Of a DNA stretch of 64,000 bases, positions 19,580 through 40,794 are shown piece by piece. Below the pieces are notes generated by a model. It saw only the letters and a list, made by a program, of their open reading frames with translations. It did not search any database and had not been told where the DNA came from. Made by a program: the position numbers and the translations under genes. The stretch spans positions 599 through 64,598 of the forward strand of contig CAZWUZ010000001.1 in assembly GCA_964637655.1 (NCBI GenBank), written 5' to 3'. The stretch's first letter is position 1; each line of letters starts with the position of its first letter. Origin of the DNA: an uncultured bacterium (GTDB taxonomy: Bacteria; DAOPZR01).

Positions 19580-21121
19580 CTAATTGTCGCTCCCCTGCGA
19601 CACAACGAAGCGCCCAATAACCGGGTTGAAGACGAGCCGTTCGCGATTATTCTGATACCATGCCGCCATGGCGACACTGTCGCCCTCGATATCAACAAAT
19701 GCACGTACCAGCAGTGGCACCGCTGTGCCGTGCCCGTTTATCGATACGCTCGCTGCATCCCCCTCTTTACACCACGAGGCAATACATTCTCCCAGCGCCG
19801 CAATCATCCCGTTGCGCAATGTCAGCAGTTGCAGTTCTTCTGCGTTGCACCTGTCCTCGTGCGTCTGCTGCATGACTGCAGCAAGCATGTCATTGCGTAC
19901 ATCATGCGGCAGCAATTGCAGGGCTGCGTGCAGCATATTGTCATCTTTCCGGCTGGGGTCATACTCGAATATGGTGATTTCGTATATGCCTGTCCGATGA
20001 TTACATGGTAGTGAGCGATACCGCTGTTGCAGGCAGATCTTGAGCAGCGGATATACCGTGCTGTCCTGCAGTGCCGCTCCGGCATATAACCACTTCGGGT
20101 CGAGTTCCGGATCGTTGCGGCGCAGCATGGCGATGATTTGCGGTGTGGCATCACGTTCCCAATGGTGACCGAGTATCACATCAAGCAATTCTGGTGCACG
20201 CGGCAGGGCTGCTGCTATCCGCTCGCAATTCTGCTCGCACGCCAGCGCCGCAACCGCCTGAGTAAGTACATACCGTTTCCATGAGTTCCTTTCATTGTCT
20301 GGCCTCACAGGCAGTTTTGTCAGTTGCGCCAACAACAGGTCAACATGGACTGGCCCGACAGCATACAGCAGTTCAATAGCATGCTGCTGGCTCACACCGA
20401 ATTCATTTTCGCCATCTCCCTTGTGACTGGCTGCGATGCGGGCAACATACCGGCGATAGTCATCACGCGACGGTGTTTCCGGCAGGCCATAGGCTCTCGG
20501 CAGCGGGCGGGAAGCATCAGGGTAGAGCGTTGTATCGCTGTTGTACCATTTGAGAAACACTTCCCCGGTCATTTCATCCGCCGCTTCTCCCGCTTCGCTC
20601 GAGAGCACATACCGCCGCCCGTTTTTCACTCCCCCCAGTAATCCCACACGTTCACGCCCGATACGTTCCAGAAGCAATATGATCAGTTCATCGCCTCGAC
20701 CAAAGCGCATGCAACCACTCTGCGGCATGACGCAGTAGTTCATCGCCGTGATGTACTTCCGGTAATCGTCTGTATCCGGATGGTCGGGCAGGCGGACGCG
20801 CACAGCATCGGCATGGCGCTGTTCCTCGCTGCGCGTGTCGTACCACCAATCCGGCGCGCGAAAGGCCCAGGGATTATCAGGCTGCGTACGGTACAAATCA
20901 TCGGCATAGCCGCTCCGCACGGGCGGGATTGCCGGCTTGATTTGTGCTGAAAAGAGCGGCGCAAGTGAAACCAGAGCGATGGCGCCCAGCATAATCCCGC
21001 CAATCACCACGGCCGCTGCCAATCCGTTGCGCAGTCCGCCCGTCACCATGTCAGCCGGCGCGCTTTCCACAAGACACCGCCCGCTGCCGTCATCCGGCGG
21101 GATACTCACTTGCTCACTCAT
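19580..21121 (-). CDS. N-terminally anchored helical-repeat protein, paralog of 17015..18337
   Basis: TM helix near the N-terminus; motifs shared with the downstream paralog. Confidence 0.55.
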   Translation of the reverse strand: MSEQVSIPPDDGSGRCLVESAPADMVTGGLRNGLAAAVVIGGIMLGAIALVSLAPLFSAQIKPAIPPVRSGYADDLYRTQPDNPWAFRAPDWWYDTRSEEQRHADAVRVRLPDHPDTDDYRKYITAMNYCVMPQSGCMRFGRGDELIILLLERIGRERVGLLGGVKNGRRYVLSSEAGEAADEMTGEVFLKWYNSDTTLYPDASRPLPRAYGLPETPSRDDYRRYVARIAASHKGDGENEFGVSQQHAIELLYAVGPVHVDLLLAQLTKLPVRPDNERNSWKRYVLTQAVAALACEQNCERIAAALPRAPELLDVILGHHWERDATPQIIAMLRRNDPELDPKWLYAGAALQDSTVYPLLKICLQQRYRSLPCNHRTGIYEITIFEYDPSRKDDNMLHAALQLLPHDVRNDMLAAVMQQTHEDRCNAEELQLLTLRNGMIAALGECIASWCKEGDAASVSINGHGTAVPLLVRAFVDIEGDSVAMAAWYQNNRERLVFNPVIGRFVVSQGSDN

Positions 21122-21743
21122 TATCTGCCGTTCCTGTTGCACGACGCACGCGGTTGTTGACCTTCACCGTGCCGTTGTCGACCAGAATCTTGTCCGTCGC
21201 GCCGACCATGCCGTAGGCAGTACCGTTGACGGTCAGCGCGCCATTCTCAATGCTCACTTCGGTCGTTCCTATCGTCAGGGTATGGCAACCCATGATATGC
21301 GTGGTCATCTTCATGGCCGAGCCGGGGCGTACCGTCACGTTCCGCCTTTCGAGCGTCGCTGTCGTCTCGTAGTCCGGCTGCCGCCGCTGCTCGCTGCGCG
21401 ACAGGGCGCGCCCGCGGCGTACCTGCCCGTCAACCGAGACCACGCCGCTGTCGATGCTGATGGCCGCATTCGGCGCGAGCGTGCCGTACGACTTGTTGTT
21501 CACCGTCAGTTTGTCGTCGGCAATGCGCACGCTGATCGTGCCGCAGGTATACTCGAACGTCTTCCTGCCGTTGCTGGTTGTCTGCGCACTGCTCGTCATC
21601 GCGTTGCCGGGCGTCACCGACACAGCATGCGTCCCCATGGTGGTTGTCGAGGCCACGGGCGCGGTGTTGACGGAGCAGGTGCAGGCGGTCAGCGCCAGCA
21701 GCGACGCGAGCGCCAGCAGTATCACCGGCTTGTGCATGGTCAT
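21114..21743 (-). CDS. lipoprotein with two internal sequence repeats
   Basis: Signal peptide LLALASLLALTAC. The repeat LTVNNKSYG...VRRGRA resembles LTVNGTAYG...VRRATG. Confidence 0.5.
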   Translation of the reverse strand: MTMHKPVILLALASLLALTACTCSVNTAPVASTTTMGTHAVSVTPGNAMTSSAQTTSNGRKTFEYTCGTISVRIADDKLTVNNKSYGTLAPNAAISIDSGVVSVDGQVRRGRALSRSEQRRQPDYETTATLERRNVTVRPGSAMKMTTHIMGCHTLTIGTTEVSIENGALTVNGTAYGMVGATDKILVDNGTVKVNNRVRRATGTADNE

Positions 21744-21744
21744 G

Positions 21745-22167
21745 TCAGTTTCCTCCCGCTCGTATGAATGCCTGCAGCATGTGGTTGTACAGCCCCGCCG
21801 TCAGCCACACCAGCAGCAGGTGACCGGTAAAGTACCAGCGGTCATTGCCGCTACCGGCCCGCCACACCCTGACAACGAAATAGAGTACCGGTAGCAGCGA
21901 GTAGCAGAGCATCAGCACTACAGCCGCCAGCGCGAGTTGCGGCGAGAGCGCCGGCAGGTCCTGCGGATACGCGGCAGCAGCAACCAGCGCAAGATACGGG
22001 CCGCGCAACCCGATGTGCAAAGCCGTCAGGATATCCCCCGGCACAACCGGGTTTTCCTGCACTGCCAGCAACAGGGCACAGGCCGCAACAAACGCCGCCA
22101 GGTTGCCGATCTCGATGACAAATGCCGCACCGCCGCCAAGCCAGGCCGCCAGCCGTCGCATGGTCAC
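21745..22167 (-). CDS. membrane protein (140 aa)
   Basis: Four TM helices; 4-nt overlap at both ends. Confidence 0.45.
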   Translation of the reverse strand: MTMRRLAAWLGGGAAFVIEIGNLAAFVAACALLLAVQENPVVPGDILTALHIGLRGPYLALVAAAAYPQDLPALSPQLALAAVVLMLCYSLLPVLYFVVRVWRAGSGNDRWYFTGHLLLVWLTAGLYNHMLQAFIRAGGN

Positions 22168-24872
22168 AGCCCCTCCGTCAGTGCCGGGCTGAGTCGCGCC
22201 GCGGGATGGCGCCAGGTGCCCGGAAAGAGTTTGCTGCCGCGCACGTAGGCGGCGCGGGCATTCGTGCTGTCACCCATATGCTCGTAGGTCAGCCCGATAT
22301 TCATCCACGTGTAGACGATGCTCGGGTCGTAGCGCCAGGCCAGGTCGAACATCGCCAGTGCCTCCGCATGCCGCCCGAGCGTGTCGAGCGCGCTCCCGTA
22401 ATAGTTGTAGTCACGCCCGTTGCGGTCCATCAGCAGCATGCGGTCGAGCACCGGCAGCGCCTCGGCCGGTCGCCCGACGTTGTAGATGAGCAGGCGGGTG
22501 TAGTCGCGCAGGGCGACGATATCGTCAGGGTCATAGAGCAGCGCGCGGCTGCTGGTCGCCAGCGCCGCCTCGTCATCGCCCGACAATTCCTCCGCTTCGC
22601 GGCGCAGTCCGTGCATCCAGAGCATGAAGCCGGGATACGCTCCGCGCACCTGGCGGAACTGCAGGGCCGCGCGCACCGCCTCGCGCGTTTCGCGGCGTTC
22701 TTTGAGTCTGGCATGCGCCAGCGCCCGGTAGGCATGCACCAGCGCGACGTCGGGATTGACCACCAGCGCGTGCCGGTAATGCGTGAGCGACGCCCGATGG
22801 CGGCCGCGCTCCTTGGCGGCCAGTCCGAGCCCGAAATGCGCCAGCCAGCAGCCGCTATCGACTGCCAGCGCCTTGGCATACTCGTTCTCCGCCCGTTCGT
22901 AGTTGTGCTTGACGGTGCTGTAATAGTCGCCGAGCATGACGTAGGGATAGGGCGAGGCGGTCGTTTCCGCCAGGCATTCCTCGGCCAGTTGCTTCCGCTC
23001 GCCCGTGCGATGTTCCGCGTAGAGCCGGCAGAGGCGCAGTTTCGCCGCCAGCGAGCCGTGCGCACCGATGGCGGCGTCCAGGTACTCGCGGGCGGTGAAG
23101 TCATCGTCGCGGGCAATGCAGGCATCGGCGCGCGCGAGCAGTTCGGACTCGGGCAGCGCCGCCAACGCCGCCGCGCGCTCTGCCTCCACCCGCGCCACCG
23201 TTTCGCGCCCGACCAGCGACGCGATCATTTCGACAAACACGCCAGCCGTGTCCTGCATCGGCGTATGGTAGACGCTCATCGTTGACATCACCCTGCCGTC
23301 GCGACCGATGGCCAAATAGCATGGCGTCGTGGCGCTCGGCGAATAGAGGCGGTACTTCCGGTAGAACTCCGGTTCCCAACCGGTATAATCGGTGAGGAAC
23401 GGGTAGGGAAGCGGATTCTGCCCGAGGTACTCTTCCGTGATGCGCCGGTCGACTTCCGGTGCCATGACCACCACCCGCAGTCCCGCGTCGGCATAGCGGC
23501 GCTGCAGTTCCGCCAGCGCGCCGAGATACATGCGGTCCCACGCGATCCAGGTCGAGGCCATGACGAGCAGCGTCGGCGCCCCGTGGAATTCATCCGTGCT
23601 GTATGTGCGCCCGCTGCGCGGGTCACGCATACGGAATTCCGGCATCGGGCCGCCCACGAGATGATGCCCCTTCCACCCCCACGCCAGCCGCACGTCATAG
23701 CCGACCAGCCCGTTGTACGTTTCCGCGTCCGGCGCGAGCGGCATGGCCGTCGCCTCTTCGGTCAGCGGCAGGTCGGTGCGCTGGTTCTCCAGATGCTCCG
23801 TGTAGTACCGGCTCCGGTCAGGCGCGTAGGTGTCGAGCCGCCGCACGGTAAATCGCCGCAACTGCGTCAGGGCGCGGTCAGTGGTCACCGTATACTCGCC
23901 ATCACCATACCCGAAATAGGCGCCGGTGAAACGGAAGACGATCGTGCTGTCACCCACCGTAATGCGCTGCAGGTCGGCACGACGCACCCGGCACTGGTCA
24001 TCGCTGATTTTGCCGGTAAGCAGCCCGAGCACTAAACTCGGCCCGTAGGTCCCCCCCTCGACCGAGCGCGGCGGCAGCGATTCATACCAGCGCAGCGGCG
24101 CCGACCAGACGAGCGTCTGCGTGTCGCTGAAGCGCACGCTGAGCCCGTCGGAGAAATAGGGCACCAGGTGCGTCACGCCGTTATAATGGAAAACACGATG
24201 ACGGTTCTGGCAGTCACTCTCAAAGATGCGCGACTCGTACAGGAGTTTGCCAAAGAATTGCGGCGGCGTGCGGTAAGCCGCGCAGACCGCAGCCAGCCGG
24301 TCGAGGCAGTGCTGCTGCTGCTCCGCATCGGTGATGGTGTTGCGGTCGGACGGCACGCGCCGCTCCAGCGCGTAGCGCCCGGCCAGCGCCACGACAAGCA
24401 GGCCGATCCCCATGATCAGCGCCAGCAGGCGCGCGAGGCGCGGCTGCAGCCGCCCGCGCCGCGGCGGCGGCCCGACATAGCGCCGCGCCAGTTCCTCCGG
24501 CGTGCCGAGCGCCGTCAGCACCGCCGCGATCAGTTCCGGCGGGTACTCGCGCTCCGCCGGGAGCGGCAGCGCGCTCTCCGCCGCCCGTGCCGCCGCCTTC
24601 GCCGCGCGCACTGCGGCCAAATCGGTCACCTTCGCCGCTGCATCGGCTCGTGCCGCCGACTGCGCCGCCCGCGCCGCTGACGTTGCGGCATGCGCCGCCG
24701 CAGATGCCGCAAGGAGTTCCCCGCTCGGCGCCATCCCCTCGGCCAGCCGCGCGAGGATGTGGTCCTCGAGTTCGAGGACGAGGTCGTCCCGTTCCGTCTC
24801 GCTCAGCCCGTGCAGTTGCGCCCGGAATGCCGCGAGGTACTCGCGAACGAGTGGATTATGCCTGCTTGGCAT
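22164..24872 (-). CDS. PadR-associated membrane sensor: DUF1700/HAAS-like N-terminus, Ala-rich linker, TM, periplasmic domain, degenerate redoxin-like domain, C-terminal TPR
   Basis: N-terminus REYLAAFRAQLHGLSETERDDLVLELEDHI has the DUF1700 pattern. Segment LLVMASTWIAWDRMYL...PCYLAIGRDGRV resembles a TlpA/redoxin fold without the CxxC pair. About 350 aa of TPR follow. 17-nt overlap with the PadR stop. Confidence 0.65.
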   Translation of the reverse strand: MPSRHNPLVREYLAAFRAQLHGLSETERDDLVLELEDHILARLAEGMAPSGELLAASAAAHAATSAARAAQSAARADAAAKVTDLAAVRAAKAAARAAESALPLPAEREYPPELIAAVLTALGTPEELARRYVGPPPRRGRLQPRLARLLALIMGIGLLVVALAGRYALERRVPSDRNTITDAEQQQHCLDRLAAVCAAYRTPPQFFGKLLYESRIFESDCQNRHRVFHYNGVTHLVPYFSDGLSVRFSDTQTLVWSAPLRWYESLPPRSVEGGTYGPSLVLGLLTGKISDDQCRVRRADLQRITVGDSTIVFRFTGAYFGYGDGEYTVTTDRALTQLRRFTVRRLDTYAPDRSRYYTEHLENQRTDLPLTEEATAMPLAPDAETYNGLVGYDVRLAWGWKGHHLVGGPMPEFRMRDPRSGRTYSTDEFHGAPTLLVMASTWIAWDRMYLGALAELQRRYADAGLRVVVMAPEVDRRITEEYLGQNPLPYPFLTDYTGWEPEFYRKYRLYSPSATTPCYLAIGRDGRVMSTMSVYHTPMQDTAGVFVEMIASLVGRETVARVEAERAAALAALPESELLARADACIARDDDFTAREYLDAAIGAHGSLAAKLRLCRLYAEHRTGERKQLAEECLAETTASPYPYVMLGDYYSTVKHNYERAENEYAKALAVDSGCWLAHFGLGLAAKERGRHRASLTHYRHALVVNPDVALVHAYRALAHARLKERRETREAVRAALQFRQVRGAYPGFMLWMHGLRREAEELSGDDEAALATSSRALLYDPDDIVALRDYTRLLIYNVGRPAEALPVLDRMLLMDRNGRDYNYYGSALDTLGRHAEALAMFDLAWRYDPSIVYTWMNIGLTYEHMGDSTNARAAYVRGSKLFPGTWRHPAARLSPALTEGL

Positions 24873-25227
24873 TCGCCCGGGAGCCCTTCGCCCCGCGCTC
24901 GCTGATCACCGTGTCGATGGTCGACGCATAGTCGCGCCAGTGCTTGTGCATCCCCGCCACCAGTTCCCGCCCCTGCTTCGTCAGCGAGTAGTACTTGCGC
25001 GGATGCCCCGTGCCGGCGTTATGATCCCACTTGGCAATCACCGCGCCGTCCGTGCGCAGCCGGTTGAGCAGCGGGTAGAGCGTCCCTTCCGCCAGTTCGA
25101 TGCCGTACGCTTCCTTGAGCAGGTTGATCAGCTCGAGGCCGTACTTCTCCCCGTCCCGCAGCACGGAGAGCACCAGCATGTCCAGCGTCCCCTTCCGTAT
25201 CTGCGCCATCCAGTCATTCAGTTCCAT
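24856..25227 (-). CDS. padR: PadR family transcriptional regulator
   Basis: MELNDWMAQIRKGTLDMLVLSVL...YGLELIN...GTLYPLLNRL is a winged-helix PadR signature. RBS GAAGGAGG precedes the ATG. Confidence 0.9.
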   Translation of the reverse strand: MELNDWMAQIRKGTLDMLVLSVLRDGEKYGLELINLLKEAYGIELAEGTLYPLLNRLRTDGAVIAKWDHNAGTGHPRKYYSLTKQGRELVAGMHKHWRDYASTIDTVISERGAKGSRANAKQA

Positions 25228-26149: not shown

Positions 26150-26632
26150 TTATTGTCGCTTCTTTCGACAGCGTAGCACTCGCGCCCGGCGGCGCCGGGG
26201 CATACGCGCCGGCTGTCCATGCTGCCCGGTTGCCTGCGTGAATATGGCGGGCGTGACGATGCGTATGCCCCGCCACGCCACCAGTTCCAGCAGATGCGCA
26301 TCACCGGATACTATGCAATCGGCATCGGCCGCGCCAGCACATTCAAGTATCTTATTGTCATCCGGATCGGCGTCGATTGCTTTGACGCACTGTGTCGCGT
26401 TGACCACGGTGAACACATCATGCAATTCCCGGACAAACATCTGCGCCTGCCGCGCGGACAACTTGAACTTCGGCCGCTGCAGCACGTCGCGGATTTCGTC
26501 AAGTATTTGCAACGAGATAAATCCCTGAACGGATCCGTCAATCACCCGTTCGAGCACACGCCGCGGCTCGCCGCCAAACAGCAATGCGGAAATAATGACA
26601 TTCGCATCGAGCACGACACGCCGCGCGCGCAT
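26150..26632 (-). CDS. PIN-domain toxin (VapC-like)
   Basis: VVLDANVIISAL and DADCIVSGDAHLL acidic motifs. The start overlaps the stop of the RHH gene. Confidence 0.7.
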   Translation of the reverse strand: MRARRVVLDANVIISALLFGGEPRRVLERVIDGSVQGFISLQILDEIRDVLQRPKFKLSARQAQMFVRELHDVFTVVNATQCVKAIDADPDDNKILECAGAADADCIVSGDAHLLELVAWRGIRIVTPAIFTQATGQHGQPARMPRRRRARVLRCRKKRQ

Positions 26633-26880
26633 CAGCGCGCGGCCTTGCGCCTGCGGTGCGCCGTGATTTCCCGGTCTACATCGATCGGCTGCAATTTCCC
26701 GCGCTGGGCGATATCCTGCCCCAGGGCGAACAGGTCGGACCAGCGTTCACGTCGCTGCAGGTAAGCCCGCGCCGCTTCGCGCAGGAACTCCGAGCGGCTG
26801 CGCGCCTCGCTCCGTGCCACCCGGTCGATGTCTTTGAGCAATCCGTCCTGAAACGCGATATTCACGGTAACCGTGCGCAT
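26632..26880 (-). CDS. ribbon-helix-helix (CopG-like) antitoxin
   Basis: 82 aa; N-terminal beta-strand plus helices (VTVNIAFQDGLLKDIDRVARSEARSRSEFLREAARAYL). Confidence 0.65.
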   Translation of the reverse strand: MRTVTVNIAFQDGLLKDIDRVARSEARSRSEFLREAARAYLQRRERWSDLFALGQDIAQRGKLQPIDVDREITAHRRRKAAR

Positions 26881-26897: not shown

Positions 26898-26929
26898 AAC
26901 AATATACAATTATTGTATATTGTTGTCAA
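26898..26929 (-). promoter_or_regulatory. perfect 13-bp inverted repeat AACAATATACAAT-t-ATTGTATATTGTT overlapping TTGACA-N17-TATATT promoter of the RHH/PIN operon
   Basis: Palindrome read directly from the sequence. -35 and -10 are on the minus strand 20-50 nt upstream of the RHH start. Confidence 0.5.
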
Positions 26930-27023
26930 CGCCCCCCCCTGTCGGCACTGTTCTACGCGCCGCGGCGGCGCGACGTTGGCCACCGTATCTCGTGGTATTG
27001 ATCCAAATGTGCAGTCCAGCTAT

Positions 27024-27548
27024 TTAGTCGACTGCGTGCCCAAAGTCATTCCAATATGACGGTTTTACCGTCACCAGTACTATTCTGAAATACTTATTCT
27101 GTTCGTCATACGGCCAGACTGCCAGCATCACACTCGACCGGTCATCGAGGTCATTCAGGTTTCGATATTCATAGCAGTTCCCGGTGAGAAAATAACTTTC
27201 TGGCAGAAATTCCGTACAGGTACTCGCGCGACGGGAAGTGTACCCCGCAGCGTTTATGGCTTTTTCGATATGACTGACAATCTCATCACAATCACGCCAT
27301 CCATCGACTGCCGTGTCTGCAGTTGCACATTTTCGCAATACATAATAGCAGCCAGACTCATCTTCCGCTGTAAGTGTCGTATGGCTGATATCCCACCAGG
27401 CTAATTCATGCGACAGCGGAACATGGACATCAATGTACGATGGTGATAGCGCCACCGACAATCCGCCATAAGCTACCATCAGCAATATTGTGGTAGCGAA
27501 TACTGCAACGCAACCATAAACATATACACGTTTCGTCGAGTTTGTCAT
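27024..27548 (-). CDS. secreted Cys-containing protein (174 aa) in the AT-richer island
   Basis: Signal-anchor VYVYGCVAVFATTILLMVAYG. Local GC is visibly lower than the flanks. Confidence 0.45.
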   Translation of the reverse strand: MTNSTKRVYVYGCVAVFATTILLMVAYGGLSVALSPSYIDVHVPLSHELAWWDISHTTLTAEDESGCYYVLRKCATADTAVDGWRDCDEIVSHIEKAINAAGYTSRRASTCTEFLPESYFLTGNCYEYRNLNDLDDRSSVMLAVWPYDEQNKYFRIVLVTVKPSYWNDFGHAVD

Positions 27549-27728
27549 GATTCATCCCGCCCATAATGGCGTATGAATGTCAGAGATGCAATTCCGGTTT
27601 GGTCACGCGTATTCATGCCATCACCTTTATGCCACCGATGAGCGTTCTTCGTTGAGCCGCACTGGCAGCGATGCGCAGTAGCGCGGCTGGTTTTCATCGG
27701 ATTTTCATCCTGACACCACTGCTAATTT

Positions 27729-28184
27729 TCACCCGCTTTGACACCAAGCGAGCAAATAATTAAGTAATATTACTGCAACAATCAGGCAACAGCAAATTGC
27801 CTGATAGACTTCTGTTTTTCGAGTGACCAGATACGGGGGTGATCCTTCCGAATATATCAACTCGTCGTTATGCTGTACCGTTAGAGACCGTATTGTAAGC
27901 CATGGCCACACCCTGACCTGAATCACGAATTTGTCATTATTGTGGACTAATTCGAACCGAGGGACGAACCACAGTCTAGAGCGTGTGACAATCTTGTCAT
28001 TTTCAACAGCAACTGTTTCTGTGCCACGACCGCGACCATTGTAAGTTACCAGCACCGGTCCGTTCGCGGTAGGAACCTCGATAACTCGTTTGAGCCAACT
28101 ACGGCTTTTCAGCATTGAATTCATTGTCGCTCCTTTGTCATCACCATCTAATTGCACCGAATGATTATCGCCCTGCGGGCGCAA
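27729..28184 (-). CDS. hypothetical protein with C-terminal TM (151 aa)
   Basis: ORF in the AT-richer island with a C-terminal hydrophobic helix. Confidence 0.4.
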   Translation of the reverse strand: MRPQGDNHSVQLDGDDKGATMNSMLKSRSWLKRVIEVPTANGPVLVTYNGRGRGTETVAVENDKIVTRSRLWFVPRFELVHNNDKFVIQVRVWPWLTIRSLTVQHNDELIYSEGSPPYLVTRKTEVYQAICCCLIVAVILLNYLLAWCQSG

Positions 28185-28230
28185 CTATTCGCGCCCGCAG
28201 CGGTGCGATGCTGGCCATTGTGTGCTCCAT

Positions 28231-28716
28231 TTACCTGACCTTGTGTAGATACTTCAGCAACGCAATAAGCAATAGTATTCCACCGGGCACTAACAGGCAG
28301 CCAAACGCTGCATACATCACCTCTCTGGCATTGCGCGGTCGATGCGGCTTTGTGGAAGGAATTCTCTTCAATACAACCTTCGGTTCTTCCCCTGAGTGTT
28401 CGGTCGGAAAGTCATCTGCACTCAATACCTGGCTCACACCAAATGCCCATACCTTCAATTGCAGCAGCATATGTCGCTGATTCTGGTCGAGACAGTCAAT
28501 CACGACGAGCGAGTATTCCGTCTTGATCCCATCTTCATCGAACAGCGGTCCAACCCGGCACCGTGAAACCACATACCCATGTTTCCGGCAATATCTCATG
28601 GCATACGCCACGTAACATCGTTCGAGCCAACCATGGGTAAAGACAAGGAGAGGTAATGCCAGAATCCCGACAACTATGGCAGTGATGATTTCGATGATGC
28701 TCTTGTCCGTCATCAT
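28231..28716 (-). CDS. membrane protein (161 aa)
   Basis: N- and C-terminal TM helices. 4-nt overlap with the stop of the sensor gene upstream. Confidence 0.45.
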   Translation of the reverse strand: MMTDKSIIEIITAIVVGILALPLLVFTHGWLERCYVAYAMRYCRKHGYVVSRCRVGPLFDEDGIKTEYSLVVIDCLDQNQRHMLLQLKVWAFGVSQVLSADDFPTEHSGEEPKVVLKRIPSTKPHRPRNAREVMYAAFGCLLVPGGILLLIALLKYLHKVR

Positions 28717-31463
28717 TGCATTCCAGACGTACTGGTCAACGCCCCGGACAACGCGCCAATTTCTTCGTCCGTCGCGCCGCCCCAGAACTCCGGGAAGCGC
28801 GCGCGCGCTGTCTGCCAGGCATTGCGGGCAGCGACGTGGTCGCCGCGGCGGGCGTGCAGCAGCCCGATGGCAACCTGCGCCGTGTGGTTGCCCGGATCGA
28901 GACGCAGCACCTCGTCGAATTTCGCCATCGCCTCATCCGTGCGCCCGAGCGCTGCCAATGCCCATGCATAGTGATACAGGTCGATATCGTTGTAATCATA
29001 GCGCAGCAACTGCTCGAGCACCGGCAGCGCCTCGGCCGGACGCCGCACCTGGTAGAGCAGCGTGCGGGCAAGCCCGCGCAATTTGCCGCGATTGCCCGGA
29101 TCGTAGCGGAGCGACAGGCGGTTCCGCTCCAGCGCGCGCTCATAATCACCGAGACGGTCGTACCGGTCGACTTCCTCGCCGTAGCCCTCCACCTGTAGCA
29201 GCGCGTCCGACGCCCCGCGCAGCCCCCGGAACAACGTCACCTGCCGCAGCGCCTCCTGCAGTTCCGCCTCGCGCCTGAGATCGCGCAGCGACACGGACAG
29301 CTGCTGCCAGACGAAACTGTTCTCCGGCACTATCTGCAGCGCCTGGCGGTATGCTTCCACCGCTTCGGTATACCGGCTGCGGGCGGCATAACTCTGCCCC
29401 TGCTTGAGGTACGCCTGCCAGCAGCGCGGATCGAGTTCGAGTGCCCGCGCGTACTCGCGCATGGCGCGCCCGTGGTTGCGCTTGTCCGTACGGTAGAAAT
29501 CGCCCAGCATCAGGTGGGGGTAGGGCGAGGTCGTCGTCTCCGCGAGGCACTCCTCCGCCAGCGCCTTCCCCTCCTCGTTGCGGTACTCGGTATAGAGCCG
29601 GCAGAGCCGCAGTTTCGCCGCCAGCGACCGGTGGCTGTCGATGGCCGCCTGCAGGTATTCCTTGCCGGTGAAGTCGTCCTCGCGCGCGAAGCAGGCCTCC
29701 GCCCGCGCCAGCAGTTCCGCCTCCGGCAGCGACGCCAGCGATTGTGCCCGCTCCCGCTCGATGCGCTGCACGGTCGCCTCGCCGAGCACGGGTACCAGCA
29801 GTGCCGCCAGGTCATTGACGCTGTCACTGATGGGCGAATAGTAGCGGCTCCCCGCCGCGGCCACCCGTCCGTCAGCCGCTACCGCGAGAAATACCGGGTC
29901 CATGTCGCATGGCGCGTAGAACCGCCCGGCGGCAAAGTGCGGCGCCTGCCAGCCCGTGAAATCGGAAAGCAGCGGGTAGGGGAGCGGATGCTTCGCGAGG
30001 AACGCGTCGGTAATGCGCCGTTCCACCTCCGGGGCGAGCACCACGATGCGCAGGCCGGTCGCCGCGTAGCGCTCCTGCAGCGCCGCAAAGGCGGCAAGAT
30101 AGAGTCGGTCCCACGGTATCCAGGTGGCCAGCACGGCCACCAGCGCCGGGCGGCCGCGCAGGTCGGCAGACGTATGAAGTATGCCGGTGCGCACCTCGGG
30201 CGCACTGAACGGCACCATCGGCCTGCCAACCAGGGCCTGCCCCTTCCAGCCCGACGGCTGGTGCAGGTTGTACCCGTCCTGCCCGCGGTGCAGGCGCGCG
30301 TCAGGCGGAAGCGGCAGCGCCAGTGCCTCCGCGGTCAGCGGCAGGTCGGTGCGTTCCCCGCTGATATGTTCGCAGGCGAGATGGCTGCGGGTATAGCCCG
30401 GCTCGTCAAGCCGGCGGACGGTGAACGAACGGAGGCGCGGCTGCTCCGCGTCGAGCACCACCTCGTACTCGCCGTCGCCGCAGCCGAAGTAGGCGCCGGT
30501 GAACGTGTAGGTGACGCTGTCATGACGGCGCACGATCTTCCGCACATCGCGGTCAAAGACCCGGCACTGGTCCTCGCTGATCTTCCCGGTGAGCAGGCCG
30601 AGGAGCAAACTCGGGCCGTAGGTGCTCCCCTCGATATCGCGCGGTGGCAGAACCGCGTACTCGCGCAGCACCGGCTGCCAGACCACGGTCTGCGTGTCGG
30701 TGTACCTGACGCTGACCGCATCGGCATAGAGCAGCGGCACAAGACGCGTGATGCCGTCGGCATGCAGCACCCGGTAGTACTGCCGGCATTCACGCCCGAA
30801 GATCCGCGACTGCCCGTGGAGTATTCCGTAGTACGGGCTGCGCTGCCGGTAGGCACCACAAACCGCAGCAAGCCGGTCGAGCAGTTTCTGCCGTTCTGCG
30901 TCTTCCGTCACGCTGATACCCTGCTGCAGCGCGCGCCATTCCTGCGTCGATCGCGCCGCCAGCGCCACGGCCAGCAACCCGGCACACATGAGCACGGTGA
31001 GCACGCGCGCCATACGCGGCGGCAGTTGCCAGTGCTGCTCTTCTTCAGGCGGTGCGCTCTCTTCCGGTGCCTCGTCATAGCGGCGCGCCAGCTCCTCCGG
31101 CGTGCCCAACGCGGCCAGCACCGCCTGCACCGCGGCAGCCGTGCGGGCGGCTGGTGCCGCCACCGCGCTTTCCGCCGCCAGCGCCGCGCGCTGCGCGCGC
31201 ACCGCCGCCAGGTCAGTCACCTTGGCCGCCGCATCGGCCTGCGCCGCCGACTGCGCCGCCCGCGCCGCCGAGGTTGCGGCATGCGCCGCCGCCGAGGCCG
31301 CCAGCACCTCGCCCGTCGGCACCCCGTCTTCCGCGAGCCGCGTCAGGATATGGTCCTCGAGTTCGAGAACGAGGTCGTTCTTCTCGTTCTCCGACATCCC
31401 GCGCAGTTGCGCGCGGAACGCCGCGAGGTACCCGGTGATTATTTCGCTATGCCTGTCTGGCAT
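28713..31463 (-). CDS. second PadR-associated membrane sensor (DUF1700/HAAS-like, TM, degenerate redoxin-like, TPR); paralog of 22164..24872
   Basis: 916 aa. Same architecture and about 80 % N-terminal identity to the first copy. The redoxin-like segment LVAVLATWIPWDRLYL also lacks cysteines. Confidence 0.65.
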   Translation of the reverse strand: MPDRHSEIITGYLAAFRAQLRGMSENEKNDLVLELEDHILTRLAEDGVPTGEVLAASAAAHAATSAARAAQSAAQADAAAKVTDLAAVRAQRAALAAESAVAAPAARTAAAVQAVLAALGTPEELARRYDEAPEESAPPEEEQHWQLPPRMARVLTVLMCAGLLAVALAARSTQEWRALQQGISVTEDAERQKLLDRLAAVCGAYRQRSPYYGILHGQSRIFGRECRQYYRVLHADGITRLVPLLYADAVSVRYTDTQTVVWQPVLREYAVLPPRDIEGSTYGPSLLLGLLTGKISEDQCRVFDRDVRKIVRRHDSVTYTFTGAYFGCGDGEYEVVLDAEQPRLRSFTVRRLDEPGYTRSHLACEHISGERTDLPLTAEALALPLPPDARLHRGQDGYNLHQPSGWKGQALVGRPMVPFSAPEVRTGILHTSADLRGRPALVAVLATWIPWDRLYLAAFAALQERYAATGLRIVVLAPEVERRITDAFLAKHPLPYPLLSDFTGWQAPHFAAGRFYAPCDMDPVFLAVAADGRVAAAGSRYYSPISDSVNDLAALLVPVLGEATVQRIERERAQSLASLPEAELLARAEACFAREDDFTGKEYLQAAIDSHRSLAAKLRLCRLYTEYRNEEGKALAEECLAETTTSPYPHLMLGDFYRTDKRNHGRAMREYARALELDPRCWQAYLKQGQSYAARSRYTEAVEAYRQALQIVPENSFVWQQLSVSLRDLRREAELQEALRQVTLFRGLRGASDALLQVEGYGEEVDRYDRLGDYERALERNRLSLRYDPGNRGKLRGLARTLLYQVRRPAEALPVLEQLLRYDYNDIDLYHYAWALAALGRTDEAMAKFDEVLRLDPGNHTAQVAIGLLHARRGDHVAARNAWQTARARFPEFWGGATDEEIGALSGALTSTSGMQ

Positions 31464-31818
31464 TCGCCCGGGCGCCCTTCGCCCCGCGTTCGCTGATCAC
31501 CGCATCGATCGTCGACACATAATCACGCCAGTGTTTGTGCATCCCCGCCACCAGTTCCCGCCCCTGCTTCGTCAGCGAGTAGTACTTGCGCGGATGCCCC
31601 GTGCCGGCGTTATGATCCCACTTGGCAATCACCGCGCCGTCCGTGCGCAGCCGGTTGAGCAGCGGGTAGAGCGTCCCTTCCGCCAGTTCGATGCCGTACG
31701 CTTCCTTGAGCAGGTTGATCAGCTCGAGGCCGTACTTCTCCCCGTCCCGCAGCACGGAGAGCACCAGCATGTCCAGCGTCCCCTTCCGTATCTGCGCCAT
31801 CCAGTCATTCAGTTCCAT
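31447..31818 (-). CDS. padR: PadR family transcriptional regulator (second copy; start at MELNDW)
   Basis: Protein almost identical to 24856..25227. RBS GAAGGAGG precedes the ATG at 31818. The listed ORF extends 5' to 31920 but the promoter lies inside that extension. Confidence 0.9.
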   Translation of the reverse strand: MELNDWMAQIRKGTLDMLVLSVLRDGEKYGLELINLLKEAYGIELAEGTLYPLLNRLRTDGAVIAKWDHNAGTGHPRKYYSLTKQGRELVAGMHKHWRDYVSTIDAVISERGAKGARANARQA

Positions 31819-31891
31819 TGTTGCCTCCTTCTCGTTTGGTTGTTTTACGGGCAGCGCAACCGCCGTTACGTTCGACAGAGAGTATGCAGCG

Positions 31892-32039: not shown

Positions 32040-32648
32040 TCAGACTGCAACCAGCATCACTGGGACAAGGACAAACACCAGAAGCATCAGGAGCAGCAGC
32101 ACGACAGCCGCCGTCGCAGCCCAGAAGTAATGGCGCATACCTTCCGCATTCCTGAGTTTCCATGCGGTCAGGGCACCCAGGAGCAGCAGCACCACGGCAA
32201 CGGCGATGGCCACGATATTGTACCGCTCATACCTGCGTACCGGCGGGATATATTCCATTGCGCCGAGCGATGCTATGTAGCGGATGGTTTCCGCCTGATC
32301 GTTCTGCGCATCATGGACTGAGCAAATGGTATAATCGCTCCCGTTGCTGGTATAAGCATAGTCATTGCCCCAAGGATCGCGGGTGATCGTCGCGACGTAC
32401 GGCCCGCTCCACCCGGGCGCCGTATCAGTCAGCAGCTGGCCGAGCGTGCCGGGAAAAAGCGCGTCGGACACGTCAACCCGGTACAACGCCAGTGCGGAAT
32501 TGAATGCGCCAATATCGCCACTGGCAGCGCCGTTCTTTGATCTTTCAACGGAACAGGGGATCTTCGGCAGGGCAATTGCAGCAAATATCCCGATGAGAAT
32601 GACCGCAACACCCCAGCGCTCCCATCGATTCCTCCTGCACTTTGTCAT
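32040..32648 (-). CDS. GspG-like pilin-domain protein, single N-terminal helix and two C-terminal TM helices
   Basis: ALALYRVDVSDALFPGTLGQLLTDTAPGWSGPYVATITRDPWGNDYAYTSNGSDYTI matches the T2SS major pseudopilin globular-domain pattern. No G-F-T-L-I-E leader. ORF extends to 32723. Confidence 0.55.
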   Translation of the reverse strand: MTKCRRNRWERWGVAVILIGIFAAIALPKIPCSVERSKNGAASGDIGAFNSALALYRVDVSDALFPGTLGQLLTDTAPGWSGPYVATITRDPWGNDYAYTSNGSDYTICSVHDAQNDQAETIRYIASLGAMEYIPPVRRYERYNIVAIAVAVVLLLLGALTAWKLRNAEGMRHYFWAATAAVVLLLLMLLVFVLVPVMLVAV

Positions 32649-32664
32649 GCCGGAGTTACCCGCG

Positions 32665-33306
32665 TCAGCGCTCACCGGGATCACCGTTCGCAGCATCATG
32701 GTGGCTTCTTTGACGGCGCACATCCAATTCCGACAGCATCATCTGGCACGCGCTGCCGATATCGCGAGGGATTTCCAGAAACGACGAACCGGGATTGTGC
32801 GCCGGCACCGGCGGCGATCCCGCTCCCGCCTGTTCAAGGAACGGACGCACAATTTCTCCCATGGCAAGTATGCAACTGTATGCCCGGCCCTGGGTCTCCT
32901 GAACAACCAACCGGCTCAGCAACAGGGGCACGACCCGGGTATCCGGCTCGCACATGCTAAAGGTAAATACCTGTCCGCCATTGGCCAGGCGTGTCTTATA
33001 ATCCCTGTCGATTTCCACTCGCCAACCGTCAGGCAATTGCCCTGTATTGAGTTCGAGATCCGTAGTGGCGTCGAGGATAAAACGCGCCGACTTGGCAGTA
33101 TAGTCAGTGTCCGATAGTGAACAGCTGTACAGATACAGTTGCCCGATATCTGTGTCCGGCGGGATACAGTCGCGGACGACCGTAATCTGTGGCGGTGGCT
33201 CCGGCGTTGGGCCGCATGGGGACTCAAGGTACGAGAGAGTTGCGGCAAACACCACTGTCAGCAGCAGCAGCATGGACAGCACGGCAAGCCGTATTCGCGT
33301 ATCCAT
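32665..33306 (-). CDS. secreted protein (213 aa)
   Basis: Signal peptide LAVLSMLLLLTVVFAA; several Cys. Confidence 0.45.
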   Translation of the reverse strand: MDTRIRLAVLSMLLLLTVVFAATLSYLESPCGPTPEPPPQITVVRDCIPPDTDIGQLYLYSCSLSDTDYTAKSARFILDATTDLELNTGQLPDGWRVEIDRDYKTRLANGGQVFTFSMCEPDTRVVPLLLSRLVVQETQGRAYSCILAMGEIVRPFLEQAGAGSPPVPAHNPGSSFLEIPRDIGSACQMMLSELDVRRQRSHHDAANGDPGER

Positions 33307-33456
33307 TCAGGCTATTACCTCATCCACTGCTGTCATTGCATTTACATATACATAGCATAGCATCTCTTCTATCAATACGCAAGTGCCGAACCGGCGTGGT
33401 ATGCATCAGACACGCCCTTCATCCCGGCAGGAGGAGCAAGGCACGCCCCGCCCGGG

Positions 33457-34314
33457 TTACGCCTTGCGCGTCTGCTTGATACGGCCGGAATCCGACTTGA
33501 ACGGTCCCTCACCGGGACGGTACAGGCAGATCTCCGGGATCAGCGCCTGCAAATGTTCGTGCCACGCTTCACGGAAGTCGGCGTTGATCTCAACCAGATG
33601 TTTGAGAATGGCATCGGCGAAATGCTGGCGTATCGCTTCGTCTGGCTTCTCACTGATCGCAAAGTGGAAACACGGCCGCACCGTCCCGTCCGGTGATTCC
33701 GCCAGGGACTGGCAGAATGAGACGGTCAGCCGCGCCGTCTCCGGGTCGGCGTAGACGCAGTGTTCCAGATCCTCAGGATAGATATTGGCGCCCATGACAC
33801 TGATCGTAAAATCCCTCCGCCCGTAGATCCATAGGAACGGCAGGCGCAGCACCGGGTGGCCCGCCGCCAATGCGGATAGGGCATGCCCGGCCGCAGCCAG
33901 CCGGGCCTCGATTTCATCGTAGCGGGCAATCCCCCCTTCATCGTGCACGTTGTAACGGATCCGGGGGGACAACAACGAGGCACGCGTAATCGTAAACACG
34001 ACTTCCCGATTGTCGTTGGCCTCGATATGATGCATCCGGGGGTTGTACTGAAAGAGCATTGGGAGGCGCGAATCGTCGCCGAACAGGCTGGTGCGCACAA
34101 CTTCGTTATCGCGAGCCAGACGCCGGAGTGCGACCGCAAGCGGCGTCTCGCCCGCAATGCCGATTTCCAGGTCGGATGCCCCGTCCCCGCGGTAGACACT
34201 GCGGTAGCCGCCGAGAAGGTAGTCGCGCAGCCCTTCCGACATTCCCTCCCCGCCAGCCAACGCATCCAGCCGGTATTCGTGCCAAGGGAACCCCTGCTCT
34301 CGCGCCGCGTCCAT
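33457..34314 (-). CDS. adenylate-forming enzyme C-terminal region (GH3/PaaK-like); N-terminal core apparently missing
   Basis: RYNVHDEGGIARYDEI...LPFLWIYGRRDFTISVMGANIYPEDLEHCVY resembles GH3/phenylacetate-CoA-ligase C-terminal motifs. No P-loop region found. An 88-aa ORF lies in another frame upstream (34347..34613). Confidence 0.35.
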   Translation of the reverse strand: MDAAREQGFPWHEYRLDALAGGEGMSEGLRDYLLGGYRSVYRGDGASDLEIGIAGETPLAVALRRLARDNEVVRTSLFGDDSRLPMLFQYNPRMHHIEANDNREVVFTITRASLLSPRIRYNVHDEGGIARYDEIEARLAAAGHALSALAAGHPVLRLPFLWIYGRRDFTISVMGANIYPEDLEHCVYADPETARLTVSFCQSLAESPDGTVRPCFHFAISEKPDEAIRQHFADAILKHLVEINADFREAWHEHLQALIPEICLYRPGEGPFKSDSGRIKQTRKA

Positions 34315-34710
34315 TATGTGCTTGAGGAAAGGGGGATACCTGACTATCAGATAGCGATACCGTGGGCCGAAAAAGACAAGCGTGTTGAGAATTTTGGGGA
34401 GGTCCGGGCCGGTATTCTTGACAATGCTGTTCTTCTGCAGGGGCGGCGGGCGCGGGTCCTGCTTGCCCAGTCAAGATAGCGCGGCGGCAGCCGCTGGAAC
34501 CCCCAGAGAAACGTGCGATAGGTTTTGCAGACCAGATAGAGCAGCAGGTCACGGGGACCAAGCAGGATGAATTGCAGACGGTCTTTCATACCGGGTATGA
34601 TCCCCATATTCACTTACTCCGTTCAACAATAAGCGCCCCGGGATTCTGTTGTTTGCGCCCGTAGCGGCGCGAGGATGCGATTGAATTCCCTGTGCACTCC
34701 GGCATGCCCC

Positions 34711-35793
34711 TCATGCCTTGCGCCCCCCGACAAACTCGCTGTCATGCGCATGCAGCATGGCAGTATCGTAGGTGATTTCGCCCTTTTCGTATAATTCCTT
34801 CAGCGCATGATCGAGCGTCCACATGCCATGCCGACGCCCGGAAATAATGTCATTGACGATATTGTGGGTGGCCCCTTCGCGGATCTGCTTGCGGATAGCA
34901 GGGGTGTTGACCAGCACCTCAGTGGCCAGCACCAACCCGCTGCCATCCGCACGCGGCAGCAGCGTCTGGCAGATGATCAGGCTGAGCACCGACGCCAGCT
35001 GCGCCTGCACGGCGGGCTGCTGATGCGCGGGGTAGCTCGCGACGATACGTTCGAGCGCTGCCACGGTGTCATTGGTATGCAGCGTGCCAATGACGAGATG
35101 TCCGGTTTCCGCGGCGATGAGCGCGGTGCTGATGGTCTCCAGGTCGCGCATCTCACCGATCCCGATGATATCGGGGTCCTGGCGGAGGATATGCCGCAGG
35201 GCCGCGGAAAACGACGGGGTGTCCGACCCCACTTCCTGATGGATCACCAGCGAACGGATATGCGCATGCACATACTCGATGGGGTCCTCGACGAGAATGA
35301 TTTTACAGCGCTGCTCCTGGTTGATGCGATGCACGCAGGCGTTCAGCGTTGTAGTCTTTCCCGCACCCGTCTGCCCGGCGATGAGAATGAGCCCGTCGGG
35401 TTTCATGATGGCTTCTTCCAGCACCGCGGGCAGGCCCAGTTCGGCAAAACTGCGCATCAGCGGCGGGATGATACGGATGGCGGCACCGCGGATGCCACGT
35501 TCAAGGTAGGCGGTGACGCGGAAGCGGCCAAGTTCGGGCAGGTCGACGGTGATGCCCAGCGCGCCCTCACTGGCCAGGCGCTGCGCGCGCTGCTCACCCA
35601 CCAGCTCACCCACCAGGGCATTGCAGTCCTCCTCCGGTAATGCGTCGCAGTCAGTGAGAATCAGTTCGCCATTGATGCGCAGGACGGGTGCCAGTCCGCA
35701 GACCAGATGGATGTCAGACGCCTTCGCCGCCACCGCGCGCGCAAGAATATCGTGTACCGAGCTCATACAACCCTCCGGCGCGACCATGGCCAA
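34711..35793 (-). CDS. pilT: type IV pilus retraction ATPase PilT (start may be the Met at 35763)
   Basis: Walker A GQTGAGKTTT, Asp box DPDIIGIGEMRD, His box LVIGTLHTNDT, PilT-type AIRKQIREG. Confidence 0.85.
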   Translation of the reverse strand: MAMVAPEGCMSSVHDILARAVAAKASDIHLVCGLAPVLRINGELILTDCDALPEEDCNALVGELVGEQRAQRLASEGALGITVDLPELGRFRVTAYLERGIRGAAIRIIPPLMRSFAELGLPAVLEEAIMKPDGLILIAGQTGAGKTTTLNACVHRINQEQRCKIILVEDPIEYVHAHIRSLVIHQEVGSDTPSFSAALRHILRQDPDIIGIGEMRDLETISTALIAAETGHLVIGTLHTNDTVAALERIVASYPAHQQPAVQAQLASVLSLIICQTLLPRADGSGLVLATEVLVNTPAIRKQIREGATHNIVNDIISGRRHGMWTLDHALKELYEKGEITYDTAMLHAHDSEFVGGRKA

Positions 35794-36692
35794 ACGATAC
35801 GCGCAACCCGGCCGTCAACCGCGGTGATGGGTACGCTCAGTATCGTGCGCGTGGTGCGCAAGTTATTTTCCTGCCCGCCGCTGCCTACCCAGGCCAACAC
35901 CAGCATGCGGTCGCCGGGCACCGGCAGCCGCCCGGTAATTTCCCGCACCTGCGCGTCCGTAACCAGGAGCGGCGCCGCCGCCGGCAGCCGGTAGGGCGCC
36001 AGAGCCGCAACCACAGCAGCAGCATCGGCCGACCCGGGAGACGCCACTACCCTCCCGAAAGTCTGCCCGTAAAACACCAGATGTCCGCGCTCCAGTTCCA
36101 ATGATCTGCCCGGACTGAACATAACCAGCGCCCCGATCGGGCAATCGCCACCCGCGAGCATAACCCGGTCGTCAATTTTGATCAGCGGGGCGGGCAGCAG
36201 GTTGCGCATGGCATAGCGCACCTCATACACCGGCGCGCTGATATAGTTCCACCCGACCGCATACAGTGTCAGCAACATGGCGGCAACCACTGCATGTGTC
36301 AGGCGCGCGCTGCCGGGTGGAAACAGCACCCGGCGTGCTGCAACAAGATGCACCAGTATCGCGCCCGTCATGAACACAAATTCCAGAGGCGTCCCGCACA
36401 GCCACCAGCCGCATAATGCCAACAGCAACCAGACGGCAAAGAGGCGCACGGCGCGACCACGCTGTCCCGCCCGCCATGGCACGCTCCCCGGCAGCACAAT
36501 GGCCATAAGCAGGTCCCAATCGGGCGACCAATACGGCACCGCGGGCACCTGACTGCGGCAACGCTGCCACCAGCGGCGCAACCACGGAACTCCACCCTTC
36601 CGGCGCGGCGGCAGAAATTCGTCCGGACGCGGTGCGTTGCTCATGCCGAGAGCAGGACTATGCCTATTGCCGGCGCGTGGTGACGCCGGCAT
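35763..36692 (-). CDS. membrane protein (309 aa)
   Basis: Three or four TM helices then a soluble domain. Immediately upstream of pilT. Confidence 0.4.
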   Translation of the reverse strand: MPASPRAGNRHSPALGMSNAPRPDEFLPPRRKGGVPWLRRWWQRCRSQVPAVPYWSPDWDLLMAIVLPGSVPWRAGQRGRAVRLFAVWLLLALCGWWLCGTPLEFVFMTGAILVHLVAARRVLFPPGSARLTHAVVAAMLLTLYAVGWNYISAPVYEVRYAMRNLLPAPLIKIDDRVMLAGGDCPIGALVMFSPGRSLELERGHLVFYGQTFGRVVASPGSADAAAVVAALAPYRLPAAAPLLVTDAQVREITGRLPVPGDRMLVLAWVGSGGQENNLRTTRTILSVPITAVDGRVARIVWPWSRRRVV

Positions 36693-36867
36693 CGGTGGAT
36701 ACCGGCTGATAGTATTCCGGCTTTTTGTCCTCGCTGGTCACGACACCCAGCACCGCCTGCAGCGGTTCAACCAGCTTGCGGCAGGCGCTGCCCTTTGCCC
36801 CGACAACGTCGACCACAACCGAACCGTCGGGCTTGATAGTCACCATCAGCTCCTCGCGTTGCGCCAT
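36664..36867 (-). CDS. DUF2997-like small protein (67 aa)
   Basis: EELMVTIKPDGSVVVDVVGAKGSACRKLVEPLQAVLGVVTSED fits the DUF2997 pattern. Confidence 0.55.
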   Translation of the reverse strand: MAQREELMVTIKPDGSVVVDVVGAKGSACRKLVEPLQAVLGVVTSEDKKPEYYQPVSTDAGVTTRRQ

Positions 36868-37634
36868 CCCAGCACCTCCCTAAGCCAGTCGAATAGCGAC
36901 CGTGCAGGCGCGTCCAGGCTCTGCAGGGCGTCGTGCGCCCGGTCGTTCTGCGGATCGAGACGGAGCGCACGCCGGAACGCCGCCGCCGCGCCGCGCCGGT
37001 CGCCGGTCGCTGCACGCGCCTCGCCCTCGCATACCAGAAGGTACGGGCTGTCGGCGGCCAGCGTCGCGGCGCGCGCAAAATGCAGCAGCGCCTTCTCCGG
37101 GTTGCCCGCTGTCCGGTAGAGCAGGCCAAGATCGCACAACGCCTCATGCGGCGGGAGGCCGGCCTCGAGATACTTGACCAGCGCATAGTCGGCGTTGGAC
37201 GATTTGCCGAGCAGCAGCGCGTAGCCGCGTGCCAGCCAGGCGAGCGGCGGCGGCTCCGTACCTGCCAGCGCGCCGTCGGCAAACTCGCGCGCCTCGGGTA
37301 CGCGCCCGGCACGAGCCAGCGCCAGCGAACGGGCAGCCAGCAGGACCGGGTTCTCTGGCACCGCCAACAGGGCCTTGTCCGACCACAGCAGCGCCTCTTC
37401 CGCCTCGTTTTCCAGGAAGAGGATCCACAATTGCCCGGCCCAAGCCTCGACCCTGGACCGGTCCTGGGCCAGCGCCCGCGCATACAATTTCAGCGCTCCG
37501 GTGAAATCGCCCCGATACAATTGCCCGCGCGCCTGGCGCAGGTAATGATCAGCGTCAAACAGCACAGTTTCGACAGGCGAAGAGACAGTCGGTTCCTTGC
37601 CTGCATCAAGTTCCAGCCAGTTGAAGCGGCCCAC
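36846..37634 (-). CDS. TPR-repeat protein (262 aa)
   Basis: Repeated TPR-like helix pairs. Abuts the DUF1257 gene. Confidence 0.55.
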   Translation of the reverse strand: MGRFNWLELDAGKEPTVSSPVETVLFDADHYLRQARGQLYRGDFTGALKLYARALAQDRSRVEAWAGQLWILFLENEAEEALLWSDKALLAVPENPVLLAARSLALARAGRVPEAREFADGALAGTEPPPLAWLARGYALLLGKSSNADYALVKYLEAGLPPHEALCDLGLLYRTAGNPEKALLHFARAATLAADSPYLLVCEGEARAATGDRRGAAAAFRRALRLDPQNDRAHDALQSLDAPARSLFDWLREVLGWRNARS

Positions 37635-40632: not shown

Positions 40633-40794
40633 AGCCGGCGTATATCGGGATTGTCTTCTCGGTCTGCGATTTTCACCAGACCTTCTTTCCGCACTTTAGG
40701 AACGCGATATCACGCCAAGGATCCGACACGCAGCACCGCCAACACCGCGCACAGCGCATAGCGCTGATACGTTCTGCACCAGGACGAGCGCATC

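Follow-up and report, generated by a model that had tools for sequence, protein, structure and literature searches.

A low-GC island of three membrane-protein genes at the end of a PadR-HAAS operon in an uncultured bacterium: candidate orphan immunity genes

Orphan immunity clusters, including those of acquired interbacterial defence (AID), consist of small, unrelated genes of foreign composition with no toxin gene beside them (Ross et al., bioRxiv 10.1101/471110; Poole et al. 2011, PMC3150448; Hagan et al. 2023, PMC10539506). The same arrangement is seen in a 64,000-nucleotide (nt) stretch of DNA from an uncultured bacterium (contig CAZWUZ010000001.1, positions 599 to 64,598; hereafter the window). 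Here, three small genes, called A, B and C, form an AT-rich island at 27024-28716, at the 3' end of an operon encoding a PadR-type regulator (padR2) and a membrane sensor with a HAAS domain (HAAS2). In an mSystems 2024 paper (PMC11237479), such HAAS-PadR dyads have been proposed to relay membrane-linked signals in place of a two-component system. For an Rhs pore-forming toxin with a membrane immunity protein, the precedent is Tse5-Tsi5 of Pseudomonas aeruginosa (PMC9637101, PMC10684867). Judged from sequence comparisons, the island is best explained as an acquired array of three unrelated membrane-protein genes that would serve as orphan immunity genes against Rhs or contact-dependent growth inhibition (CDI) polymorphic toxins of competitors, a reading that we hold with evenly balanced confidence. 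As a putative orphan immunity cluster, the island is best filed under a known kind, and its own component families are undescribed.

The island has a GC content of 48.6%, compared to 61.7% across the window. This is the minimum among all 1693-bp windows (z = -4.2), the lowest non-overlapping one reaching 56.4%, so the GC dip noted in a preliminary description of this DNA holds up in a sliding-window calculation. The surrounding GC content of about 68% given there applies to the sensor gene only (68.6%) and not to the rest of the window. In 300-nt windows, GC is 0.46-0.51 at around 26900-28700 and 0.58-0.70 on either side, with 0.66 at 26600 and a return to 0.64-0.70 above 28700. Among the 64 windows of 1 kb, 27001-28000 is the lowest at 0.470. 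The GC content at third codon positions (GC3) is 0.56, 0.455 and 0.47 for the three island genes, compared to 0.84 for the sensor gene, 0.80 for a neighbouring ribbon-helix-helix (RHH) gene and 0.68 +/- 0.09 for 54 other open reading frames (ORFs). Overall, GC3 is 0.44-0.56 in the island genes and 0.83 in the neighbouring ones. Both padR-HAAS modules of the window (22164-25227 and 28713-31821) have a GC3 of ~0.83 and are outliers on the high side. The upper edge of the island is sharp at 28716. The lower edge is placed near 26930-27020, since the RHH-PIN gene pair found there is native in composition and has its own promoter-like site and palindrome. A search for direct or inverted repeats flanking the island gave nothing notable, a search for insertion marks retrieved no tRNA genes, and Rfam gave no RNAs. 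Pfam scans of the neighbouring genes showed no recombinase, integrase, transposase or phage genes.

The island was very probably acquired horizontally. The proposal had already been made in the preliminary description, and it is supported by the extreme composition, by the patchy occurrence of homologs in unrelated genomes and by the absence of the island from the PadR-HAAS loci of a relative. The closest genome found is the metagenome-assembled genome (MAG) GCA_964517215.1 (contigs L008 and L009), which was retrieved using an alignment of both HAAS proteins of the window; HAAS2 on its own retrieved nothing in a contig scan. At ~60-80% protein identity, contig L009 shows synteny to positions 7.9-21.7 kb of the window. 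Its padR gene precedes a HAAS gene truncated to 101 aa, to which the counterpart of window 21114-21743 is joined directly, with no island. Contig L008 has a full-length HAAS gene, the best match of HAAS2 in this relative, which outscores the HAAS paralog of the window (HAAS1) in comparison with HAAS2. Downstream of it come a 400-nt spacer and genes of native GC, one of them for a Wzy/tetratricopeptide repeat (TPR) membrane protein, again with no island. In the comparison of L009 1895-3172 with window 21.1-41.3 kb, the homolog of window ~40.8-41.3 kb lies upstream of padR, and a stray fragment of the padR start (MELNDWMAQ) is present near L009 1100-1130. The region at 21.7-40.7 kb of the window has no counterpart on L009, which points to either a variable region or an assembly artefact of the MAG.

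The homologs themselves are scattered. The closest homolog of C (51% identity) lies on another contig of the related MAG, beside uvrA and within a low-GC patch (51% vs ~65%). Copies of A and B found in unrelated genomic backgrounds are 74% and 76.5% identical to them in nucleotides, respectively, and the GC content of B (46%) agrees with the 47.6% of L006, the Rhs-bearing contig on which its copy is found. On a soil metagenome contig (L032, 1-5968), an integron-like array includes two cassettes with B-family genes. Its ten attC-like repeats (TCTAACCA...CAGCCAAC ... CTCGTTAGR) are 380-1170 nt apart. These cassettes show mobility, not function. No attC site (an imperfect inverted repeat of the type RYYYAAC ... 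GTTRRRY) was seen on reading the three spacers of the island. Even if the immunity reading is wrong, the island is a clean case of genes recently acquired at a locus that is prone to rearrangement and has two near-identical padR copies.

As described previously, the island holds three ORFs. All are on the minus strand; two had been taken for transmembrane (TM) proteins, but each of the three has at least one predicted TM or hydrophobic helix. Gene A (28231-28716, 161 aa, 49.6% GC) starts at an ATG that shares the letters ATGA (28713-28716) with the TGA stop codon of the 916-aa sensor gene, exactly the 4-nt overlap reported earlier, and its ribosome-binding site is weak. Hydropathy indicates TM helices at residues 7-25 and 136-154, and a conserved domain of ~80 aa contains Cys34, Cys43 and Cys75. 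Homologs are 61-73% identical, and this similarity is confined to the first ~110 aa; the copy on L046/L047 has 74% nucleotide identity over 320 nt. None of the homologs has an equivalent of the last 54 codons (28231-28396), which include the second TM helix, and the nucleotide homology to L046 ends at ~28397. This suggests an old fusion junction.

Gene B (27729-28124, minus strand, 131 aa, ~46% GC) encodes an all-beta domain of nine strands with a C-terminal TM helix (residues 110-128 by hydropathy) as a tail anchor. It was listed as 27729-28184 from a TTG start; the true start is almost certainly the ATG at 28124, based on the gene call of the Joint Genome Institute (JGI) on an identical contig, the alignment of homologs and an AAAGGAG motif 5 nt upstream. 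Gene C (27024-27548, minus strand, 174 aa) encodes an N-terminal TM helix or signal anchor (hydrophobic helix at residues 8-26 by hydropathy) and an alpha/beta domain of ~140 aa. It had been called a secreted, cysteine-rich protein. Six cysteines are indeed present, five of them beyond the helix, but the family is membrane-anchored and the cysteines are not conserved within it. The dN/dS ratio is 0.15 for A and 0.30 for B, the AlphaFold2 (AF2) models of C and B are confident (pLDDT 92 and 87, respectively), and conserved family motifs are seen in the alignments of all three. Together, this shows that A, B and C are real genes under purifying selection. Compared with their homologs, none of the three ORFs is truncated or interrupted, and an identical B-C-RHH-PIN segment is present in an independent metagenome sample. 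A protein identical to A also occurs in the protein collection searched. About 60 proteins of these families are known so far.

None of the three proteins has a match in Pfam, NCBIfam, PADLOC or PHROGs, nor in PDB sequence profile searches. DNA and protein searches of phage and plasmid collections gave no match, and scans of IMG/VR for A and B found none. The C family was found by a full HMMER search, as a word-indexed protein search returned only C itself, and its alignments are too divergent for pattern-based locus searches. Two large proteins, P0039 (828 aa) and P0040 (1303 aa), each show weak similarity to C over 7-8 short stretches. The Pfam matches of these two are scattered and below the cut-off, the similarity to C is probably compositional, and both were excluded from the family alignment. 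A Foldseek comparison of the C model with the PDB gave no significant match. The idea of A-B-C as a conserved module was rejected, as the families co-occur nowhere else. A 50-aa ORF at 27545-27697 was also dismissed, since no homolog of it is found and a 50-aa ORF located before a C homolog is unrelated to it.

The immunity reading builds on the positions of homologs in other genomes. On contig L006, a B homolog (65% protein identity) begins 150 nt downstream of a 5'-truncated gene for a 1114-aa Rhs protein. This protein contains 19 RHS repeats and, at residues 929-1009, the Rhs-associated core (TIGR03696), and it ends in a 105-aa tail. The N-terminal stretch of the tail is hydrophobic and rich in glycine and alanine, and the tail shows no enzyme signature. 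On contig L018, the C homolog P0026 begins 177 nt downstream of an ORF with an Rhs core end, its first 34 residues corresponding to TIGR03696 positions 44-76 (...DPSGL) and being followed by ~300 aa. Neither of these two Rhs C-terminal domains has relatives in Pfam or the PDB. On L046/L047, the A homolog begins 9 nt after a gene of the CdiI_3 family (PF18616, E 8e-14). Both belong to a five-gene cluster (7129-9410 in L046, 46-56% GC) located between the portal and protease genes (~64-66% GC) of a Mu-like prophage. The cluster, which further encodes two signal-peptide proteins and a 121-aa protein, looks like a phage-borne immunity island. Rhs genes occur at a rough estimate of one per 2000 genes. 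Assuming this frequency, ~0.01 Rhs-adjacent cases would be expected by chance among the ~14 distinct contexts of B and C, so the two that were seen are far above chance. No Rhs gene, toxin gene or fragment of a toxin C-terminal domain is present within the window. The genes would be orphans, since their homologs occupy immunity positions elsewhere while the window holds no toxin or part of one.

Several observations weigh against this reading. Each toxin association consists of a single locus per family, and the homolog of A adjoins a CdiI_3 gene, not a toxin. Most of the other B homologs (~20 distinct loci) are solitary, in unrelated neighbourhoods and with no toxin nearby; the same solitary placement without a nearby toxin applies to the distant C homologs (L042, L043-45). 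Two of the three contexts of A (L002/L003 and L004) have neither a toxin nor an immunity gene as a neighbour. Tight coupling is typical of toxin and immunity genes, and the gaps of 150 and 177 nt found here are longer. Furthermore, the described immunity families (the Imm and CdiI series, SUKH etc.) are not among the Pfam or NCBIfam matches of A, B or C, which have none. Finally, the search for a toxin covered the 64 kb of the window, on a contig of 66.9 kb, so a cognate toxin may be encoded elsewhere in the genome.

The operon in front of the island starts with padR2 (31447-31821, minus strand), encoding a PadR-type winged-helix regulator (Pfam PadR, E 7.7e-19) and preceded by a promoter-like TTGACA-17-TAATAT at 31920-31892. 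Next is HAAS2 (28713-31463, minus strand), encoding the 916-aa membrane sensor with matches to Pfam HAAS (39 bits, cut-off 27) and to TPR families. The protein consists of an N-terminal HAAS domain, a TM helix at 151-169, a thioredoxin-like region, which rests on an AhpC-TSA match below the cut-off, and TPR repeats. A standalone PadR winged helix-turn-helix protein beside a protein with an N-terminal HAAS domain is what defines a HAAS-PadR dyad, and padR2 and the 916-aa gene are such a pair. A paralogous operon is located 6.6 kb downstream, with padR1 at 24856-25227 and HAAS1 at 22164-24872. HAAS1 and HAAS2 are 51% identical, apart from the N-terminal ~130 residues. The two padR genes share ~97% DNA identity, their first ~280 nt being identical. 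Such near-identical direct repeats 6.6 kb apart suggest a recent duplication or gene conversion, and they are a ready substrate for rearrangement. In operon 1, a membrane protein gene (21745-22167) overlaps the HAAS1 stop codon by 4 nt, the same position as that of A.

Co-transcription of A, B and C with padR2 and HAAS2 by read-through is plausible. It is suggested by the ATGA overlap and by a coding strand on which no terminator-like site was found. Internal promoter-like sites are weak (9/12 matches). Expression of the three genes would then depend on read-through and translational coupling from padR2-HAAS2, and their level would follow the envelope sensor. At the inner membrane, each protein might neutralise a membrane- or envelope-acting toxin, as all three are membrane-anchored and the Rhs tail of L006 is hydrophobic and without an enzyme signature. 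A more far-reaching version holds that the acquired immunity genes have been wired to the HAAS-PadR sensor, making immunity inducible rather than constitutive, and that A, B and C represent three new families of immunity to Rhs toxins in uncultured bacteria; we see only a slim chance of this. In that scheme, the thioredoxin-like/TPR ectodomain of HAAS2 would detect envelope damage caused by an incoming toxin or an attack by a neighbour, upon which PadR2 would release the operon and the acquired immunity proteins would be made on demand.

The same operon placement could also mean that the products of A, B and C work with PadR2-HAAS2 or are controlled by it as outputs, for example as membrane co-sensors or stress effectors, with no role in immunity. 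The overlap of the A start with the sensor stop codon would fit, as would the likewise overlapping small membrane protein gene of operon 1, the membrane anchoring of all three proteins and the HAAS-PadR dyads with fused or neighbouring membrane domains described in the study cited above (PMC11237479). However, neither PadR nor HAAS genes lie near the homologs of the three genes at ~40 other loci, and no conserved neighbour family of any kind was found beside the homologs. The relative has PadR-HAAS loci without the island, the composition shows that the genes did not evolve with the operon, and the membrane protein of operon 1 is unrelated to A and of native GC. We therefore regard a partnership with the sensor as quite unlikely.

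Two further explanations accept the foreign origin and differ in what the genes do. The island could be a remnant of mobile-element cargo, such as a phage moron or an integron cassette, with an accessory role like superinfection exclusion or anti-phage defence. The AT-rich composition, the adjoining toxin-antitoxin pair, the closest homolog of A within a Mu-like prophage and the B-family cassettes in the integron-like array agree with this. Yet PHROGs, PADLOC, IMG/VR (A and B) and the phage and plasmid collections gave no match, there is no phage gene, integrase or recombinase near the island, and neither attC-like sites in the spacers nor flanking repeats were detected. The prophage cluster with the A homolog holds a CDI immunity gene as well, which points back to immunity, and a cargo remnant of this type is considered unlikely. 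As for hitch-hiking foreign DNA in which the ORFs are no longer functional in the host, the unmatched last 54 residues of A (suggesting a junction or fusion), the weak ribosome-binding site of A and a codon usage far from that of the host could be cited. A non-functional island is nevertheless very unlikely, given three intact ORFs that are full-length relative to their homologs, dN/dS values well below 1, the strong AAAGGAG site of B and the occurrence of the identical B-C-RHH-PIN segment in an independent sample.

The spacers of the island contain two features. Between A and B, a GC-rich hairpin is present at 28173-28200 (CTGCGGGCGC-8 nt-GCGCCCGCAG), with a 10-12 bp stem and no U tract. It is unique in the window, and the fold of the spacer has an energy of -40 kcal/mol (z -2.6). 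This hairpin could modulate the co-transcription. Upstream of C, three copies of TTTTCAYC (GRTGAAAA on the coding strand) are found at 27690-27734, the first at the stop codon of B. Three direct repeats of ATTTTCA(T/C)CC had been reported here: two are exact (27701 and 27725), but the third, GTTTTCATCG at 27690, is a degenerate copy, and a further exact one lies far off at 19571. For the shorter TTTTCAYC, nine copies are present on the plus strand of the window, three of them within these 45 nt. Beside the homologs elsewhere, GRTGAAAA repeats are absent.

Downstream of the island, an RHH antitoxin gene (26632-26880, Pfam RHH_1, 65.5% GC) and a PIN toxin gene (26150-26632, Pfam PIN_3, 59.4% GC) are encoded on the minus strand. 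Upstream of this pair, at 26898-26929 on the same strand, a promoter-like TTGACA-17-TATATT (11/12 promoter matches) is overlapped by a perfect 13+13 palindrome (AACAATATACAAT / ATTGTATATTGTT), which is probably the operator of the RHH antitoxin. The native GC content, the promoter-like site and this putative operator rule out the pair as a part of the island. On the other side, upstream of the padR2 operon, the region at 32040-49628 contains type II secretion system (T2SS)-type pseudopilin and ATPase genes, an AAA ATPase gene adjoining a radical SAM gene, a gene for a TPR protein resembling PorV/FadL, and one for a beta-helix protein of 2186 aa that ends in an FlgD-Ig-like C-terminus. Many genes in this region have no Pfam match.

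Among solved structures, the alpha/beta sandwich proteins DcrB, PA1624 and the Eag/SciW type (PDB 6e8a, 6td9, 6xrb) show 4-10% sequence identity and no significant Foldseek match. The resemblance is at the fold level only, and no function can be transferred from it. Unlike a prophage moron, the island does not lie among phage genes, as judged by the Pfam scans of its neighbours and by PHROGs for the island itself; only the A homolog in L046 does. In contrast to integron cassettes such as those of L032 with their ten attC-like repeats, the island genes have no attC in the spacers that were read. Like Tse5, the L006 Rhs protein ends in a short C-terminal domain that is partly hydrophobic and non-enzymatic, and, as with Tsi5, a small integral membrane protein is encoded downstream of it. 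This is an analogy only: the Rhs domain has no sequence similarity to a solved Tse5 chain, and Tsi5 has two TM helices, compared to the single C-terminal one of B, which also has a cytoplasmic beta domain. In the HAAS-PadR dyads of the mSystems paper (PMC11237479), padR likewise stands beside a gene for a HAAS-TM-sensor-domain protein. None of the fusions quoted from it combines a thioredoxin-like region and TPR repeats in the ectodomain, and the island genes are in no conserved HAAS-PadR neighbourhood.

The closest described systems remain the orphan immunity clusters. If the immunity reading is correct, three undescribed families would be added to the catalogue of immunity proteins, with B and C each being paired with a candidate cognate Rhs toxin domain (L006 and L018, respectively). 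Orphan immunity islands would also extend past gut Bacteroidales and Proteobacteria, in which they have been studied, to uncultured bacteria from bioreactor and soil metagenomes. Moreover, genes placed behind a HAAS-PadR pair in this way would offer a concrete case for asking if an envelope-damage sensor can come to control immunity genes. Unlike the AID clusters, the island has members outside the described immunity families and an uncultured bacterium as its host, with no type VI secretion system (T6SS) or CDI genes seen within the window, and it is without the recombinase or repeat structure of the recombinase-associated type. Its position at the 3' end of a PadR-HAAS sensor operon is a further difference. 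As in the AID clusters, relatives of the island genes follow Rhs toxins or adjoin CdiI genes, and their distribution is patchy and mobile.

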